NCBI GenBank assembly: GCA_035640475.1
Contig: DASQWC010000215.1
Span: 1,450-65,449, forward strand
Direction: 5' to 3'
From: Actinomycetota bacterium
GTDB lineage: Bacteria; Actinomycetota; JAICYB01
DNA length: 64,000 bases
Shown here: one piece after another, positions 2,296-47,808 of the stretch
Position numbering within the stretch: the stretch's first letter is position 1
Layout: every line of letters starts with the position of its first letter
Position numbers and translations under genes: made by a program
The notes under the pieces: generated by a model
Told to the model about the DNA's origin: nothing
Databases searched by the model: none
Seen by the model: the letters and a program-made list of their open reading frames with translations, nothing else

Positions 2296-2428
2296 GCGCC
2301 GGGGGGTTCGGGGGGCCGCGGAGCGAAGCGGAGCCGCCGCGCAATTGGGGGGGTTCGGGGGGCCGCGGAGCGAAGCGGAGCCGCCGCGCGAAGCGCGGCC
2401 GCCCCCCGAACTACCCGGGAGCGCGCAA
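2296..2428 (-). repeat. GC-rich palindromic repeat element, copy A (reverse orientation, with an internal 46-nt tandem duplication)
   Basis: 2301-2342 and 2347-2389 are near-identical direct repeats (ggggggttcggggggccgcggagcgaagcggagccgccgcgc). The reverse complement starts ccattgcgcgctccc and ends ccccccgaaccccccggcgcg, matching the ends of copies B, C and D. Confidence 0.75.
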
Positions 2429-4655: not shown

Positions 4656-6747
4656 CCCGAAGCCGTCGCCGGCGACACTCGCCTCGCTCGTCGCTGTCGC
4701 GCTCGTCGCCGTCGCAAGCCTGAGCCGGATCTTCGACGACCCGAAGTATCTGGCGTGGGCGTTGCCGGCGGTGGTGATCGGCGCGGTCTTCGCGTTCGCG
4801 TTCGGCCGCCGTTCGCTGGGCCTCGGCTTCGGACTGATGGCGGTCGCATGGCTGTTGACGTTGCCGGGCTTGTTCGTGCGCTCGGAAACAGATTCGGGCT
4901 TCCCAACTGCGCATGCGATCCGGACGGCATGGAAGCTCCTCGGCTCCGGGTTGTCCGACATTCCGAAGGCCGTACCGCCGCTGGAGACAGAGCCGCGCTT
5001 CATGATCCTCGTCTGGACGGCACTGCTGTTCCTCGGATTCCTCGGCGCCGCTTGGGTGGTCGTGCGCCGTCCGGTCGGCGCGATCGTCTCGGCCCTCGGT
5101 GTCGTGACGTTCACCGGATCACTCGGCGACGGCGGGGGGCGCTCGGCCTACGCAGTTGCCGCCGTCGCGGCGACCGGCGCGTTCTTCTTGGCCGAGGGCC
5201 GGCAACGCATCTCGCGATGGGCGTCGGGGCGCATCAGCGTGCCGGCATGGTTCGGCGTACCGACGCTGATGGCGGCGTGCGCGTTCGCGCTCGTCGCGCC
5301 GTTCGTCTTCGGCGACAAACCGCTCGTCGAGCTGCGCTCGGCCATCCGGCCGAGGCTCGTCATCATCAAACCGCTGTCCGACATCCGGCGACAGCTCAAG
5401 GTCGATCCGCCGATCGAGGTCATGCGCGTCGCGTCGGAGCGCTCTACCTATTGGCGACTGACGGCGCTCGACAAATACGACGGACGCGAGTGGGTGCTCG
5501 AAGCGCGGCCGCGACCGGTGCGCGACGGCGTCGTCCGGGCACCCGTTCCGCCGGCGACCGGCGAGATCCTCGAGCAGCGCTTCCGCCTCACGTCGCTGCT
5601 GTCGCCGTGGATGCCGGCCGCGTACGCAGCCCGATCGGTGGACGCACAGGCGACCGTGGAGCTCGACGAGCCGTCGCAAACCTTGTTGCTCCGCGACAGG
5701 ACGAGCCCCGGTCTGACCTACACGGTTCGATCGCAGCTGCCGCAGGTCACGTCGAATCTGTACGCGGTTGCCGGCGACGTGAGCGACGCGAACGAGAAGC
5801 TGCTGGGCGACATCGCACGGCCGCTGGTCGCCGGCGCCGCGACACCGCTCGACGCGGCTCGCCGGCTCGAAGCACACTTCCGGACGTACACCTACAACGA
5901 GGACGTCGAAGGTGGTCACTCGGTCCGGCGACTCCAGCAGTTCCTGAACGATCGCACCGGGTACTGCGAGCAGTTCGCCGCCACGATGACACTCATGCTT
6001 CGCGGCCTCGGCTACGATGCGCGCGTCGGCGTTGGGTTCCTGCCCGGTGCGTCGAGCGGAGGTGAGTTCATCGTCTCGACGCGTGAGGCACACGCGTGGG
6101 TCGAGGCCGACATCCCCGGGGCCGGATGGACGTCGTTCGACCCGACGCCGGGACGCGGAGATACGTCGCCGGCCCCCAACGAGACCGAGGAGTCGGAGCC
6201 GGCACCCGCGCCGCCCGCGCCTCAGCCGACCGAGATCCTCGAGTCGACGCCGGAACCGCAAGAATTTCCGTCCGATGTTCAACGACAAGAATCCGGCGTT
6301 CCGGCGGCCGTGATCTGGCTTTGCGTCGCGATCGCGCTCCTCGTTGTGATTCCCGTCGCCAAACGCGTGCGCCGGCACGTCCGAAGCGTCGGCGATCCCC
6401 CCGACGTGATCCTCGGTGCGTACGCGGAGCTCGTGGATCGTGCGCGGGAGCTCGGCTGGTCGGCCGCGCCGTCGGAGACACAACGCGAGTTCGTGCGCAG
6501 GACGACCGGGACCGACGGTGACGATATCGGTGTGCTCGCCGCTCGCGTGCTCTACGGGCCTCCGGGAGCGACGAAGCAAGAGGCAACGGCCGCGTGGTCG
6601 GCGCTCGATCGGACCGTGCGTGCGCTCCGTAATCGGGCGCCGATGTGGCGGCGCATCCTCGCTCCGATCGATCTCACGCCGTTCCTGCCGGAGCGAATGT
6701 TCAGGCGCGTTCGAGTGCGGCTCGGCAGCGCCCTGGCGCGAAGCTAG
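4636..6747 (+). CDS. membrane transglutaminase-domain protein (TgpA-like)
   Basis: Multi-TM N-terminus and a transglutaminase core GYCEQFAATMTLMLR...REAHAWVEADIPGAGWTSFDPTP (Cys/His/Asp), plus a late TM. The start overlaps the DUF58 gene by 20 nt. Confidence 0.85.
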   Translation: MSLWRDDPKPSPATLASLVAVALVAVASLSRIFDDPKYLAWALPAVVIGAVFAFAFGRRSLGLGFGLMAVAWLLTLPGLFVRSETDSGFPTAHAIRTAWKLLGSGLSDIPKAVPPLETEPRFMILVWTALLFLGFLGAAWVVVRRPVGAIVSALGVVTFTGSLGDGGGRSAYAVAAVAATGAFFLAEGRQRISRWASGRISVPAWFGVPTLMAACAFALVAPFVFGDKPLVELRSAIRPRLVIIKPLSDIRRQLKVDPPIEVMRVASERSTYWRLTALDKYDGREWVLEARPRPVRDGVVRAPVPPATGEILEQRFRLTSLLSPWMPAAYAARSVDAQATVELDEPSQTLLLRDRTSPGLTYTVRSQLPQVTSNLYAVAGDVSDANEKLLGDIARPLVAGAATPLDAARRLEAHFRTYTYNEDVEGGHSVRRLQQFLNDRTGYCEQFAATMTLMLRGLGYDARVGVGFLPGASSGGEFIVSTREAHAWVEADIPGAGWTSFDPTPGRGDTSPAPNETEESEPAPAPPAPQPTEILESTPEPQEFPSDVQRQESGVPAAVIWLCVAIALLVVIPVAKRVRRHVRSVGDPPDVILGAYAELVDRARELGWSAAPSETQREFVRRTTGTDGDDIGVLAARVLYGPPGATKQEATAAWSALDRTVRALRNRAPMWRRILAPIDLTPFLPERMFRRVRVRLGSALARS

Positions 6748-7768: not shown

Positions 7769-8830
7769 ATGAGTGAGCTCGAAGACCGCCTGACGAGCTT
7801 CTGCACCAAGCGCATAGGAATGCCGGCAACGATCTCGGAGCTCACTCGTCTCTCGGGTGGAGCGTCCCGGGAGATGTGGTCGTTCGCGATCCAATCCGAC
7901 GACGGCGAGCGCCGACTGGTTCTCCGTCGCGACCCGCCGGGAGCACCGGCGAAGAGTGATCGCGCAACAGAGGTCGAGATCCTGCGCATCGCGGCCGACG
8001 CCGGCGTGCCGGTTCCGAAGGTCGTGTGGACGGCCGACGCAGACGAGCTCGGCTCCCCCGGCTACTTCATGGAGTACGTGCCCGGCGAAACGATCGCCCG
8101 CCGCATCCTTCGCGAGGACGAGTACGCGAACGCTCGCAATGTGATGGCAGCGCAATGCGGCGACGTCCTCGGCAAGATCCACGCGATCGATCCGGACGAC
8201 CTCCGGGGACTACCGCGTCCCGAGCGCAAGCCGGCCGAAGCCGTCCTCGAGCAGTACGCGCAGTTGCTCGACTCCTTCGGTGAGCCGCATCCCGCCTTCG
8301 AGCTCGCGTTGCGCTGGCTCGCTCGCGAGACGCCCGCGACGGAGCGCATCACCGTCGTGCACGGCGACTTCCGGAACGGAAACCTGATCGTCGGCGAGGA
8401 AGGGCTCCGCGCGGTCCTCGACTGGGAGCTCGTGCATCTCGGCGACCCGTGGGAGGACTTGGCGTGGCTGTGCATGCGCTCGTGGCGGTTCGGGGGCCCG
8501 GGCGAGGTCGGCGGTTTCGGGAGCCGCGAGGATCTCTACATCGCGTACGAGGAGTCCTCCGGTGTGCCGGTCGACCGTGAGGCCGTGCACTGGTGGGAGA
8601 TCATGTCGAACGCGAAGTGGGGAATCATGACGATCGGCCAGGCCTTCACGCACCTGTGGGGCCATGTGCCCTCACTCGAGCTCGCCGCGATCGGGCGCCG
8701 CACGGTTGAAACGGAGTACGACGTTCTGAATCTCATGTTGCGCGCTCCCGCGCGCTCCCAGTTGATCGGGGGCGCTCCGCGCCCTTCGGGCGCTGCGCCC
8801 CCCGAACCCCCCGCGCCTGGAGTTACCTAA
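7769..8830 (+). CDS. phosphotransferase-family (APH/choline-kinase fold) protein
   Basis: VVHGDFRNGNLIV...AVLDWELVHLGDPWEDLAW gives the catalytic loop and metal-binding Asp of the APH fold. The last ~30 codons are encoded by repeat copy B. Confidence 0.85.
   Translation: MSELEDRLTSFCTKRIGMPATISELTRLSGGASREMWSFAIQSDDGERRLVLRRDPPGAPAKSDRATEVEILRIAADAGVPVPKVVWTADADELGSPGYFMEYVPGETIARRILREDEYANARNVMAAQCGDVLGKIHAIDPDDLRGLPRPERKPAEAVLEQYAQLLDSFGEPHPAFELALRWLARETPATERITVVHGDFRNGNLIVGEEGLRAVLDWELVHLGDPWEDLAWLCMRSWRFGGPGEVGGFGSREDLYIAYEESSGVPVDREAVHWWEIMSNAKWGIMTIGQAFTHLWGHVPSLELAAIGRRTVETEYDVLNLMLRAPARSQLIGGAPRPSGAAPPEPPAPGVT
8738..8816 (+). repeat. GC-rich palindromic repeat element, copy B
   Basis: ttgcgcgctcccgcgcgctcccagttgatcgggggcgctc...gctgcgccccccgaaccccccgcg. 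It is identical to copy C over a 38-nt left block and a 24-nt right block. Confidence 0.8.
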
Positions 8831-8831
8831 G

Positions 8832-22997: not shown

Positions 22998-23774
22998 ATG
23001 AGCCCGGGGCGGCGCGAAATTCTCGAAAAGGTGGCCCGCGGCGAGCTCACGCCCGAGGAGGCCGACGCGCTCCTCCGCGGGGCCGAGGAAGGGGCCGCCC
23101 CGGATCGGCCGGCTCCCGAGCCGACCTCCCCCGTCGCCAAGATCAAGGTCTCGGCCGGCTTCGGCGCAATCGTCGTGATCGGCGACGCTTCGGTCGCCGA
23201 AGCCGAGGTAGAAGGGCCGCACACCGCAACGGTGGAAGGCGACACGTTCCTCATCCGGGGCGACCTCGATCCGGTCCAGCCGGGCGGGTTTTCGATTCAC
23301 CTCGGCGCCCGAAGAATGCGTCATATGCGCGTCGGTGGACGCAGCGCGTCAAGCCTCCGCGTTCGGATGAACCCCGCGCTTGCTCTCGAAGCACGCCTGG
23401 ATGCCGGGCCACTCTCGATCTCGGACGTCAAGGGCCCGATCCGTGCTCGCTGCGCCGCCGGACCCATCACGATCGAGGATTTCTCCGGTCCGCTCGACGT
23501 CGCGGTCAACGCGGGCGCCGTACGCGCGATCGGTATCCTCACCGACGGCGAGTCGCGCATCCGCAGCGACGCGGGTGCAGTCCGCGTCGAGCTCGAGTCC
23601 GGGTCGAGCGTTCACATCGTCGCCGATGCGGCGCTGGGCAAAGTCGTTCTCCCCGGCTCCGAGGAACCGGAGCGCCGCAAATTCGGCTCCCGTCGCGAAG
23701 CAACCGTCGGCAACGGCGACGCAACACTGCGCGTGGAAACGGCCATGGGCAGCATCCACGTCTCGACGGCGTGA
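22998..23774 (+). CDS. SHOCT-like N-terminus + beta-strand-repeat protein (tentatively DUF4097-like)
   Basis: ORF 22956..23774. EILEKVARGELTPEEADALL, then repeated short beta-strand units (GPITIEDFSGPLDVAVNAGAVRA...). Start set at ATG 22998. Confidence 0.6.
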   Translation: MSPGRREILEKVARGELTPEEADALLRGAEEGAAPDRPAPEPTSPVAKIKVSAGFGAIVVIGDASVAEAEVEGPHTATVEGDTFLIRGDLDPVQPGGFSIHLGARRMRHMRVGGRSASSLRVRMNPALALEARLDAGPLSISDVKGPIRARCAAGPITIEDFSGPLDVAVNAGAVRAIGILTDGESRIRSDAGAVRVELESGSSVHIVADAALGKVVLPGSEEPERRKFGSRREATVGNGDATLRVETAMGSIHVSTA

Positions 23775-24133
23775 TGAACGAACGACGGTTCGCGCCGCGT
23801 TCGTGTCCCGTGTGCGGCGAGCGCCTTGCGCTGACACGACTCGGCTGCCCCGAATGCGACACCGAGCTCTCCGGAGTGTTCGAGGCCTGCGAGTTCTGCT
23901 CGTTGGACGCCGACGATCGCGACATGCTTCACGTCTTCCTGCGCTCGCGCGGAAACATGAAGGAGCTCGAGCGTCACCTCGGCGTGAGCTACCCAACCGT
24001 TCGCGCGCGCTTCGACAAGCTGCTCGCGCGCCTCGGCCTCGAATCCGAAGAAGAGCCCGACAGAATCGACCTGCTCGAAGCGTTGTCGAGAGGAGAGATC
24101 GATGTCGGCGAGGCCCTCGAGCGTCTCGAGTGA
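23771..24133 (+). CDS. DUF2089-type zinc-ribbon / HTH protein
   Basis: CPVCGERL...CPECDTEL zinc ribbon followed by NMKELERHLGVSYPTVRARF (HTH). The start overlaps the previous stop (ATGA). Confidence 0.75.
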   Translation: MMNERRFAPRSCPVCGERLALTRLGCPECDTELSGVFEACEFCSLDADDRDMLHVFLRSRGNMKELERHLGVSYPTVRARFDKLLARLGLESEEEPDRIDLLEALSRGEIDVGEALERLE

Positions 24134-24144
24134 GCTCGAGACGC
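24121..24144 (+). other. perfect 10-bp stem-loop spanning the DUF2089 stop codon
   Basis: gcgtctcgag / tgag / ctcgagacgc. The loop contains the TGA stop, and no U-tract follows. Confidence 0.5.
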
Positions 24145-24154
24145 TCACAGTGGC

Positions 24155-24176
24155 GGTTCGGGGGCGCAGCCCCCGG
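24155..24176 (-). repeat. partial copy (E) of the right arm of the GC-rich repeat
   Basis: ggttcgggggcgcagcccccgg is the reverse complement of the family right arm gctgcgcccc(c)cgaacc. Only about 20 nt is present. Confidence 0.4.
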
Positions 24177-24181
24177 TACAC

Positions 24182-24793
24182 ATGAGTGATACCGGGGCTC
24201 TTCGGGACGACTACCTCCCCTGGGCCGTCGACGCCCGCGACGTTCCGGAGGACGTCCGGACCGTCGTCCTCGGCTCCCGAGAGGGAACCGAACGCAGACG
24301 CGCGCTGGGCGCCGTCGTGTTCACCGACATCGTCGACTCCACGATGCTCATGGCCGAGCTCGGGAACCGGCGCTGGCGCGATCTCCTCGAAGCGCACAAC
24401 GCGCTCGTGCGCCGAGAGCTGCTCCGCTACGGAGGTTCCGAAGTCGATACGGCCGGCGACGGCTTCGTCGCGACCTTCGCGGGTCCGTCCGACGCGATCG
24501 CGTGCGCCCGCGCGGCGATCGAGGCCGTACGATGGATCGGCCTCGATCTCCGCGCGGGCGTGCACGCCGGTGAGTTCGAGCTCGTCGCCGAACGGCCGGG
24601 CCGTCCGAAGCCCAGCGGCCTGGCCATGAGCATCGGCGCACGGGTATGCGACCTCGCCGAGCCGAGCGAATTGCTCGCATCCGACACCGTTCGCCAGCTC
24701 CTCATCGGTTCCGATTACCAGTTCGAGGCGCGAGGGATTCACGCCCTCAAAGGAGTGCCGGGCGACTGGGTCTTGTACGCGGTCGACGGTTAG
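24182..24793 (+). CDS. class III adenylate/guanylate cyclase domain protein
   Basis: VVFTDIVDSTMLMAELG...GSEVDTAGDGFVATF...RAGVHAGEFE cyclase catalytic motifs. Confidence 0.85.
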   Translation: MSDTGALRDDYLPWAVDARDVPEDVRTVVLGSREGTERRRALGAVVFTDIVDSTMLMAELGNRRWRDLLEAHNALVRRELLRYGGSEVDTAGDGFVATFAGPSDAIACARAAIEAVRWIGLDLRAGVHAGEFELVAERPGRPKPSGLAMSIGARVCDLAEPSELLASDTVRQLLIGSDYQFEARGIHALKGVPGDWVLYAVDG

Positions 24794-29602: not shown

Positions 29603-29623
29603 GTTGCGTACTCTTTTCGGCTC

Positions 29624-29702
29624 GTGCGCGCTCCCGCGCGCTCCCAGTTGATCGGGGGCGCTCACGCGGTCTTCGGCCGCTGCGCCCCCCGAACCCCCCG
29701 CG
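29624..29702 (+). repeat. GC-rich palindromic repeat element, copy C (in the leuC-leuD spacer)
   Basis: gtgcgcgctcccgcgcgctcccagttgatcgggggcgctcacgcggtcttcggccgctgcgccccccgaaccccccgcg. Confidence 0.8.
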
Positions 29703-29714
29703 AAGGCAGCTGCG

Positions 29715-31079
29715 TCATTCCCACTCGCGTATGTCGACAAAGTGCCCCTCGATCGCCGCTGCTGCGGCCATCTCCGGGCTGCACAGGTGCGTTCGCCCAC
29801 CGCGTCCCTGCCGGCCCTCGAAGTTCCTGTTCGACGTAGACGCACACCGTTCCTGCGGCTGCAAGATGTCCGGGTTCATGCCGAGGCACATCGAGCAGCC
29901 CGATTCGCGCCACTCGAATCCTGCCGCCGTGAACACCTCGTTGAGGCCCTCGGCCTCCGCCTCCGCCTTCACCTGCTGGGAGCCGGGAACGACCATCGCG
30001 CGCACCGTCGACGCGACCTTCCTGCCCGCGACCACCTTCGCGGCCGCACGCAGGTCTTCGATGCGCGAGTTCGTGCACGAACCGATGAACACGCGATCCA
30101 ACGAAATGTCCGTCATGGCCGTCCCGGGCTTCACACCCATGTAGATCAGCGCACGCTCGGCCGTCTCGCCGTCGGGCTGCGGCACGGAGCCCGTGACTTC
30201 GACGACCTGGCCCGGCGTCGTGCCCCACGTCACCATCGGCGCGAGACTCGACGCGTCGATCGTTTCCTCGCGGTCGAACGTTGCCCCCTCCTCGGTCGGC
30301 AGCTCGCGCCAGCGCGCCACCGCGTCACTCCATTCCTTCGGCACGGCGGGACGTCCCTCCAGGTATGAGAATGTCGTGTCGTCGGGCGCGATCATGCCGG
30401 CACGGCCGCCGCCCTCAATCGTCATGTTGCAGATCGTCATGCGGCCTTCCATCGACAGCGACTCGATGGCCGGTCCGGCATATTCGACGACGTGCCCGAC
30501 GCACCCATCGGTGCCGAGCCGTCCGATCGTGGCGAGGATGAGGTCCTTGGGTGTGACGCCGAAGCCGAGGACGCCCGAGTAATTGATGCGGAGCTGACGC
30601 GGCCGCTTCTGTACCAGGCACTGCGTCGCAAGCACGTGCTCCACTTCCGACGTTCCGATGCCGAAGGCCAGTGCACCGAACGCTCCGTGCGTCGCCGTGT
30701 GGCTGTCGCCGCAGACGATCGTCATGCCCGGCTGGGTGAACCCGAGCTCGGGTCCGATGACGTGGACGATGCCGCGCTTGTCCGAACCGACCGAATACAC
30801 CGGGATGCCGAACTCCTCACAGTTGCGCTCGAGCGCCTCGACCTGCTGTCGGGAAAGCTGATCGGAGATCTGCTGCGCGACGGGAATCCATTCCGTCGGC
30901 ACGTTGTGGTCGGCCGTCGCGACGGTTCGGTCCGGCCTGCGCACGCGACGACCGGTTATTCGCAGACCGTCGAACGCCTGCGGAGAAGTGACTTCGTGCA
31001 CGAGGTGCAGGTCGATGTAGATGAGACCGTCGGAGACCTCGTGCGTCTCCCAGATCTTGTCGAACAACGTCTTCGGCAT
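29715..31079 (-). CDS. leuC: 3-isopropylmalate dehydratase large subunit
   Basis: ORF 29715..31217. [15 protein letters not shown]...[14 protein letters not shown]...GDSHT...CSMCLGMN aconitase-family Fe-S motifs. Start at ATG 31079. Confidence 0.95.
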
Positions 31080-47578: not shown

Positions 47579-47640
47579 GGGAGGGAGCTCGTTCCCGCGG
47601 GCTCCCTCCCCTGCCCCCTCTTCGGGGGCCTTTTTGTTCT
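47579..47640 (+). terminator. tandem hairpins, the second a canonical intrinsic terminator
   Basis: gggagggagc (47579-88) pairs with gctccctccc (47601-10). Then gccccc-tcttc-gggggc (47613-29) is followed by ctttttgttctt. Confidence 0.7.
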
Positions 47641-47660: not shown

Positions 47661-47772
47661 CAATTGCGCGCTCCCGCGCGCTCCGCTCAGATCGGGGGCG
47701 CTCACGCGGCCCCCATTCGCGCCTCCGCTTCGCTCCGGCGTGGGGGCCGCTGCGCCCCCCGAACCCCCCGCG
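47661..47772 (+). repeat. GC-rich palindromic repeat element, copy D (longest)
   Basis: caattgcgcgctcccgcgcgctccgctcagatcgggggcgctcacgcgg...cgcctccgcttcgctccggcg...gccgctgcgccccccgaaccccccgcg. The middle segment matches the duplicated unit of copy A in reverse complement. Confidence 0.8.
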
Positions 47773-47808
47773 GAAACAGTTGCGTGAGGCGCGTGTCAGC
47801 ATCGATGG

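Follow-up and report, generated by a model that had tools for sequence, protein, structure and literature searches.

How small palindromic repeats without a dedicated transposase move, MIRUs and CGTC-type REPs among them, is a long-standing question. In BIMEs (enterobacteria) and BOX elements (pneumococci), a small set of modules is combined in differing numbers and arrangements. The enterobacterial BIMEs have been described as modular mosaics (PMC2817692). MIRUs, whose description is traced to Supply et al. 1997 (as described in PMC3184786, PMC12548453), are 40-100 bp long, occur in 40-50 copies at intercistronic positions, and have tetranucleotide direct repeats, GC-rich inverted repeats and ORFs coupled by -4 overlaps (PMC3184786, PMC12548453). 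REPs and REPINs are short, GC-rich imperfect palindromes in intergenic DNA that form clustered and nested mosaics; their abundance is lineage-specific, and some copies supply stop codons or sit in the ends of ORFs (PMC2817692, PMC3116915, PMC3733652). CGTC REPs, palindromes with a short unpaired tail that are common in Alphaproteobacteria, 'apparently lack a dedicated transposase'; their stems of 8-9 bp begin with A/T pairs and close on loops of 4-5 nt (PMC3733652).

The repeats considered here come from the genome of an uncultured soil actinobacterium, a Solirubrobacterales-like MAG (G000) of 3.29 Mb and 66% GC. The window, that is the whole 64,000-nucleotide stretch that was analysed, is contig C215:1450-65449 of this assembly, and the nearest relatives of its leuC are found in Solirubrobacterales/Thermoleophilia MAGs. 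The assembly is fragmented (218 contigs) and 5.5% contaminated, so that element copies and partner genes may be missing from it. Pairs among contigs C149, C177, C110, C3 and C94 are 86-90% identical across 1.6-2.1 kb and carry an intein-containing ribonucleotide reductase and a subtilase; consistent with the contamination value, these near-duplicates suggest that the bin includes another strain or species. Genes were called with a crude codon-score caller made for this analysis, which over-extends ORFs. What, then, is the hairpin-forming repeat that recurs in this window? The evidence makes it likely that copy D, on which the analysis centres, belongs to a lineage-specific family of short, non-coding, modular, hairpin-forming repeats, a selfish DNA of REP/MIRU-like character that spreads in an uncultured order of Thermoleophilia by inserting in intergenic spacers and stop/start junctions.

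The original prediction recognised one element at five loci of the window, with shared left and right ends. The five loci are real (copies A, B, C and D as described, the fifth within 24121-24189) and the ends are shared as stated. Read from its leftmost part, the element consists of the L module TGCGCGCTCCCGCGCGCTCC, which is a 6-bp hairpin (GCGCGC-TCCC-GCGCGC), the linker CAGTTGA, the left arm TCGGGGGCGC, TCAC, an apical hairpin centred on GC-TTC-GC, a T, the right arm GCGCCCCCCGA, the C-rich tail ACCCCCCGCG and a conserved extension GAAnCAGTTGCGAnATTGCt. The right end had been correctly seen as conserved but was placed too early, as the element continues for ~20 nt through GAAnCAGTTGCGAnATTGCt. 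The two arms pair with one C bulged, and this complementarity, together with compensatory changes in the apex, agrees with the claim that each copy can form a hairpin. The whole is composite and 75-135 nt long, and subfamilies are split by the apical part into a canonical type, a D type with CCCAATTCGCGCCTCCGCTTCGCTCCGGCGTGGG, an A type and a GGGGGGGCAACACGGCGCCCCCCC type. Copy D (47661..47792, plus strand), placed in the long subfamily by its sequence and by repeat families D2/D4, is the 79-nt unit with ~33 bases added at the apex. On the plus strand its L hairpin module (47665-47684) is followed by the linker (47685-47691), the left arm (47692-47701), an extended apical hairpin (47706-47750) that holds the extra module ATTCGCGCCTCCGCTTCGCTCCGGCGT (47715-47741), the right arm (47752-47762), the tail (47763-47772) and, from 47773, the conserved right extension GAAACAGTTGCG. 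The genome has three further copies of this long subfamily (C24, C135, C192).

Copy A (2296..2428, minus strand) is a rearranged representative of subfamily 2 that has one half of an L module and combines a GGGGGGCGGCCGCGCTTCGCGCGGCGGCTCCGCTTCGCTCCGCGGCCCCCCGAACCCCCC body with an exact tandem duplication of 47 nt (2301-2342 / 2348-2389; 42-nt units, 100% identical, 47 nt apart), and its left end GCGCGCAATG adjoins the moxR ATG at 2428. The relation proposed between its duplicated unit and the extra segment of copy D is borne out by CTCCGCTTCGCTCC, which the two have in common. Modules duplicate and nest among copies: there are three tandem units with a period of 64-68 nt in C26 and two each with a period of 59 nt in C194 and C119, and L modules are repeated in C23 and in locus L089 of G004, a genome of the sister genus. 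A CRISPR-like array was rejected as an explanation of the tandem units, which are whole element modules, most copies being dispersed singly. The boundaries of the L-bearing form are fuzzy. Many copies have ARTTGCG-like words at both ends, and TTGCG-like words flank the form with no clear target duplication of fixed length. An inverted L module is present at the right end in only two of ~36 copies (C44:22283-22407 and C12:1-67), which total ~125 nt and have a 19-nt terminal inverted repeat (TIR; TTGCGCGCTCCCGCGCGCT...AGCGCGCGGGAGCGCGCAA); the remaining ~34 end in GAAnCAGTTGCGAnATTGCt and have no right TIR. The TIR-bearing copy in C12 (C12:1-200 of G000) lies immediately upstream of a tRNA-Trp(CCA)-like gene.

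Further copies outside the window had been anticipated, and BLAST and nhmmer returned 39 significant ones in the genome. The L module has 36 genome matches at up to 2 mismatches (25 exact), while its reversed pattern has none at that threshold and three at 3 mismatches; GCGCCCCCCGRACCCCCC has 28 exact matches against 0 for the reversed control. These controls rule out chance GC-rich matches. The R module matches 48 times at up to 2 mismatches, its reversed pattern being unusable as a control with only 2 bases different from R. Merging leaves 64 distinct loci across the genome, whose ends are conserved and whose middle varies, a density at which 1.25 are expected per 64 kb. Six of the 64 lie within 300 nt of a contig end, regions that make up 4% of the genome, and the repeats may contribute to contig breaks in MAGs. 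Nearly all 36 L-module matches fall between predicted gene bodies, in line with the intergenic preference that had been proposed, and many copies are no more than 20 nt from a gene's 3' end. The original placement of all copies at gene boundaries needs one correction, as copy B has replaced the stop codon of a kinase gene. An orientation bias had also been considered. The L-bearing copies show none with respect to adjacent genes (10 same, 11 opposite, 6 convergent, 4 divergent). This speaks against the family being primarily a terminator or stabiliser. Genes between inverted copies are ordinary housekeeping genes.

The predicted fold was examined in an alignment of 17 distinct canonical copies from two genera, in which 98.5% of cells are paired, compared with 40-58% in slid controls. 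The 10-bp main stem (G5/C6) has no compensatory change, and seven of its ten pairs do not vary at all. By comparison, four of the six pairs of the apical stem are changed on both sides (GCGCCC/GGGCGC, GGGCGC/GCGCCC, GGCGGC/GCCGCC, GCTCGC/GCGAGC). Compensated, double-sided cells number 16, against 5.0 +/- 1.6 in shuffles (0/500 shuffles reach 16), and all four compensated pairs belong to the apical helix. As DNA, copy D folds at -44.6 kcal/mol (z = -2.6); z-scores across copies range from -3.7 to +0.4, unremarkable and uninformative values for a composition of 66% GC. The sequence had not been recognised as a named family. Rfam covariance models agree, with 0 matches in the window at gathering score and a best match overlapping copy D (E <= 10) of 15.7 bits against a cut-off of 51.

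What does an insertion of this kind do to its neighbours? Two hairpins outside the element (47581..47639, plus strand) follow a SigB-like sigma-factor gene, and the second of them is an intrinsic terminator (GCCCCCTCTTCGGGGGC + CTTTTTGTTC). Textbook terminators of this type, with a T-run, are uncommon in a 66% GC actinobacterium. With this separate terminator upstream, copy D lies after it and 36 nt before ligD; a promoter-like site was looked for in the copy and none was found, and in this position it is probably inert. Copy B (8738..8831, plus strand; canonical 79 nt at 8738-8816 and a decayed right extension) lies in a tighter place. It replaced the stop codon of an APH-kinase ORF (window 7769-8830), which consequently reads on for 30 codons (LRAPARSQLIGGAPRPSGAAPPEPPAPGVT) and stops at a TAA one base before the GTG of a DUF6285 gene; the decayed right extension provides the GGAG, the TAA and the spacing to this GTG. 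The kinase homologues in three related genomes (G003, G007, G008) end at residue ~323-325, at a coupled TGATG-type stop/start junction. Copy C occupies 29624-29702 (29603..29714 with its surroundings, plus strand), between leuC, whose stop is at 29715-29717 on the minus strand, and leuD, whose ATG is at 29612. Frames read directly from the sequence on the gene strand show an 18-codon ORF that runs from an ATGA overlap at the leuC stop to a GTGA, the GTG of which shares its frame with leuD; a variant of the chain with 20 codons starts at a GTG 7 nt before the leuC stop. Such chains of overlapping ORFs are left by the L-bearing form in some copies only, and copy D has none. Selfish insertion could in this way be tolerated in tightly coupled operons (leuCD, kinase/DUF6285), through a mini-ORF relay or a protein tail. 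For annotation the consequence is over-extended ORFs: the kinase would automatically be made ~30 aa too long, its tail being copy B (+30 codons), and leuD would receive a false long start.

The leuC/leuD junction also illustrates how the copies compare with empty sites. In most of 31 relatives the two genes overlap or are at most ~10 nt apart; here they are separated by 95-112 nt. Eight orthologous places carry an element in G004 and none in G000. Sequence comparison of these sites shows the copies to be insertions, which supports the REP/MITE-like, mobile reading of the original prediction; all filled/empty comparisons are between genera and hence silent on recent movement. In G004 no fewer than 25 copies were counted, which match the consensus query at 96-100% (some at 100% across 90 nt) and lie beside genes that are just 72-84% identical to those of G000. 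By this measure the copies are shown to be far more alike than their flanks, even across genera. The leuCD site is occupied in both genera, but by different subfamily bodies. In two other Actinomycetota MAGs (L018, L029) the leuC-leuD junction holds different repeats (a GCGGGGCCGGAGGCCCCGC hairpin and GGCAGCTGGCAGCTGGCAG repeats), and the junction seems to be a recurrent landing place. The distribution of the family is narrow. The order is represented by ten genomes: six are free of copies, two carry a single one, and two are rich in them, with 28 and 19 exact R words. When 185,579 species genomes were searched, the L module with its linker was found beyond the own genome only in G004, and the L module alone also in G003 and in three unrelated single matches; a plasmid collection searched for the element gave no match.

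The fifth locus of the window introduces a second form. The sequence at 24155-24176, taken for a partial copy, is indeed related, but its sequence, ORFs and family-2 architecture place it in an L-less sister form, as a degenerate copy with a true span of 24121-24189 (plus in gene orientation). Here a hairpin CGTCTCGAG-TGAG-CTCGAGACG lies over the stop codon (24131-24133) of ORF 23771-24133, followed by GGTTCGGGGGCGCAGCCCCCGG and the ATG of the next ORF at 24182, and a 20-codon ORF runs from a GTG at 24130 to a TGA at 24189. About 26 loci have TTGACCGGGGGCGCTGCGCCCCCCGGACCCCCCGCG and then a second hairpin with no L module. The sister form is co-oriented with genes and its layout on the gene strand is X ... 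x5-x1 R-TGA-GC nnn GC-TCA-Y x1'-x5' (2-5 nt) CGCGGGGGGTCCGGGGGGCGCAGCGCCCCCGGTCAA RTGA ... Y, where the core is ~36 nt long and palindromic. The resulting hairpin of 9-12 bp stands over the upstream stop codon. In all 11 ATGAGC-loop-GCTCAT hairpins of the genome the core follows, and in 10 of these an ORF of 138-991 aa stops at the TGA, whereas none of 20 other GC-nnn-GC hairpins has the core. The ~55 variable stem positions are all complementary; the 3' arm of the hairpin is an inverted copy of the last codons of the upstream gene. From the ATG of the ATGA overlap runs a relay ORF of 19-25 codons (20 in six copies; MSxAHxxxAGGPGGAAPPVK), the TGA of which overlaps the start of gene Y in 8 copies, while 3 copies are fused to Y in frame; the downstream ORFs begun at the relay RTGA are 104-1094 aa long. 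In the 20-codon relays the RTGA words are 59 nt apart, equal to the tandem period of C194 and C119, a spacing that is constant across arms of different sequence and slightly unequal length.

How does a gene's own end come to be copied into a repeat? Filled and empty sites of the sister form were compared for G006/G000, for G008/G000 at the rplL end and for five G004/G000 sites. Empty sites have the 5' arm, which is the native end of gene X, and have neither the 3' arm nor the core, both of which are new DNA in the filled partners. The native targets are RTGA overlaps, often RTGAsCGAa, and RTGA is duplicated in every case, with an apparent duplication of 4 to ~21 nt. Native terminators were rejected as the origin of these family-2 hairpins, as a 3' arm would not fit into the overlapping stop/starts of the empty sites, and every ATGAGC-type hairpin of the genome has the core. 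The 26-nt core GGGGGCGCTGCGCCCCCCGGACCCCC recurs exactly in several Paracoccus isolates and in Phaeovulum (L135-L172); a single Paracoccus MAG has 20 or more such places. There, 25 aligned copies define a repeat of ~50 nt, TTGCGTCCCGCGryGGCC-core-CGC, with the core in the centre; several loci lie shortly after a stop codon and some are orthologous across species. The common core could reflect either transfer or convergence.

Judged by arrangement, the closest analogue of the family is the MIRU rather than the classical GTAG-tagged REP, a likeness that is one of layout only. Both have Actinomycetota hosts, tens of copies per genome in the intercistronic spacers of operons, filled and empty sites with a tetranucleotide direct repeat, GC-rich inverted repeats and tandem arrays; in both an internal ORF overlaps the stop and start of its neighbours (-4) and relays translational coupling, and for neither is a transposase known. 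The ORF chain is present in the sister form (8 copies and 3 fusions) and in copy C, and arrays that would behave as VNTRs are present in C26, C194, C119 and copy A. Unlike MIRUs, the elements described here have a much stronger G5/C6 hairpin, and their L-bearing form has no orientation bias and is found outside operons too. We know of no report of MIRUs in which a hairpin arm is an inverted copy of the last codons of the upstream gene; this flank-derived arm is a new trait of the present family. With REPs and REPINs it has in common all the general traits given above, down to copies that supply stop codons or sit in ORF ends. It differs in having no unpaired GTAG and no RAYT in its own genome, and its copies are single composite units of 75-135 nt, not head-to-head dimers. 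REPs are palindromes of 20-40 bp; the palindromic core of the sister form measures ~36 nt, and the element to which copy D belongs is the longer composite. A palindrome with a short unpaired tail and no dedicated transposase recalls the CGTC REPs (PMC3733652), and the sequence ahead of the Paracoccus relative, TTGCGTCCCGCG, has CGTC within it. However, the stem here has 10 bp, all G/C but for one T-A; it is interrupted by one bulge and closes on a 1-nt loop or nested hairpin, and the Thermoleophilia copies have no CGTC tag. The 17 aligned copies and those of family 2 have neither GTAG nor CGTC next to the stem. Identity with GTAG/CGTC REPs was therefore rejected on the missing tag, the different stem rules and the missing RAYT (PMC3733652). 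Like BIMEs and BOX elements the family is modular (L module, core, GC-TTC-GC hairpin, CTCCGCTTCGCTCC module, right extension), and its tandem units of 47 to 68 nt can be likened to their mosaics, but sequences and hosts are unrelated and there are no known binding proteins here.

A RAYT/IS200-like or other transposase had been thought possible elsewhere in the genome. Own-genome searches (PF01797, PF01385, PF01548, PF04986 and self-BLAST) yielded neither a RAYT nor another identifiable partner. RAYT (PF01797) had 0 matches, with controls positive in 6 of 14 genomes; no TnpB, IS110 or IS91 was found in the assembly (PF01385, PF01548, PF04986); and self-BLAST gave no multi-copy IS, only strain-mixture duplicates at ~86-90%, such as the ribonucleotide reductase. 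RAYT (PF01797, Y1) was also absent from four core-bearing Paracoccus genomes, and searches of the own genome, G004 and the 185,579 species genomes gave no IS with the element ends. The IS110 and IS91 loci of G004 contain no element modules, and its transposases do not adjoin any. As the genome is a fragmented MAG, the absence of a mobiliser is weak evidence. The one RAYT-like ORF seen in G004, truncated and sub-threshold (L173; G004:C543:3-236, minus strand), sits where a 1.7-kb contig ends; the GTAG-type hairpin (GTAGGTCGGGTTAGCGGAGCGTAACCCGACG) in front of it has no relation to the element. The ORF was rejected as a partner on account of this hairpin and the small contig, which may be mis-binned.

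Such a family could move and persist in the following way. The conserved hairpin core would serve as a handle for a mobilising activity acting in trans, which is missing from the assembly or unrecognised in it. After or during insertion, intrastrand template switching at quasi-palindromes, seeded by the GC-TTC-GC or GCGAAGC mini-hairpins, would keep the pairing and extend it into the flank. That hairpin arms arise, are homogenised and grow by template switching of this sort is known (PMC8794818, PMC13100816, PMC7202029), and GCGNAGC is an extraordinarily stable DNA mini-hairpin (PMC13037366), so that a route to flank-derived arms is plausible. The surviving copies would be those that leave neighbouring genes expressed, as coupling relays, as harmless tails or at sites behind a terminator. 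A more specific and tentative proposal, which we regard as possible but doubtful, is that core insertion is mechanistically coupled to flank copying and that the same machinery is at work in two phyla. The element would land on an RTGA overlap (with RTGAsCGAa preferred) and duplicate RTGA; a GCGAAGC-type fold-back, or a hairpin on the cleaved target end, would then prime synthesis, the product being an inverted copy of the last codons of the upstream gene. With an arm copied from the flank, each copy would build its own 9-12-bp stop-codon hairpin and leave the 59-nt relay-ORF unit. If true, it would add a way of mobilisation for which REPs, MITEs and MIRUs offer no described precedent, and the exact 26-nt core of Paracoccus would mark the same machinery across two phyla. 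The clean filled/empty pairs, the preferred target at stop/start overlaps and the flank-made arm that this family offers make the mechanism of movement constrained and testable.

Other readings account for part of these data. The copies could be classical MITEs, deletion derivatives of an IS moved by DDE cut-and-paste with the L module as TIR. The copies in C44 and C12 with their 19-nt TIR, the ARTTGCG-like words at both ends of many others and the existence of filled and empty orthologous sites, which is a MITE trait, would all suit this. It is nevertheless an unlikely origin. A typical MITE has TIRs on most copies, whereas here the right one is absent from ~34 of 36 and the sister form has none of any kind; no parent IS with the same ends turned up in the own genome, in G004 or in the species genomes, and no target duplication of fixed length could be made out between the fuzzy boundaries. 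A host cis-regulatory RNA (3'-end stabiliser, attenuator or terminator), recruited repeatedly and with its hairpin under selection as RNA, would explain the compensatory changes of the apical stem, the co-orientation of the sister form with its 9-12-bp hairpin over the upstream stop, and the many copies within 20 nt of a 3' end. We give this reading little credence. The L-bearing family is equally frequent in both orientations and is found in divergent spacers too, a T-tract is missing from the element and the genuine terminator ahead of copy D is separate from it, housekeeping operons have sites occupied in one genus but vacant in another, and neither Rfam nor the weak fold z-scores lend it support.

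Conservation of the 10-bp stem and tail over 17 distinct copies in two genera could alternatively mean that G5CGC-T-GCGC6 is a dimer site at which a host protein (nucleoid-associated, Xer-type or another recombinase) binds or recombines DNA, and the 26-nt core in Paracoccus is what would be expected of a site for a conserved protein. This we consider very improbable, since no candidate protein was identified, the copy-number expansion and nesting look selfish, and the distribution is patchy, with many copies in 2 of 10 genomes of the order and none in most, a poor fit with a conserved host function. Selfish, REP/MIRU-like insertion remains the preferred reading of the family, its orthologous sites and its sister form. 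The small hairpin of the L module is also seen in an unrelated phylum: Paenibacillus sp. HB172176 (L180, ~4700-5100) has a tandem array of ~50-nt units that contain CGCGCTCCCGCGCGCTCCC, which is the same hairpin.
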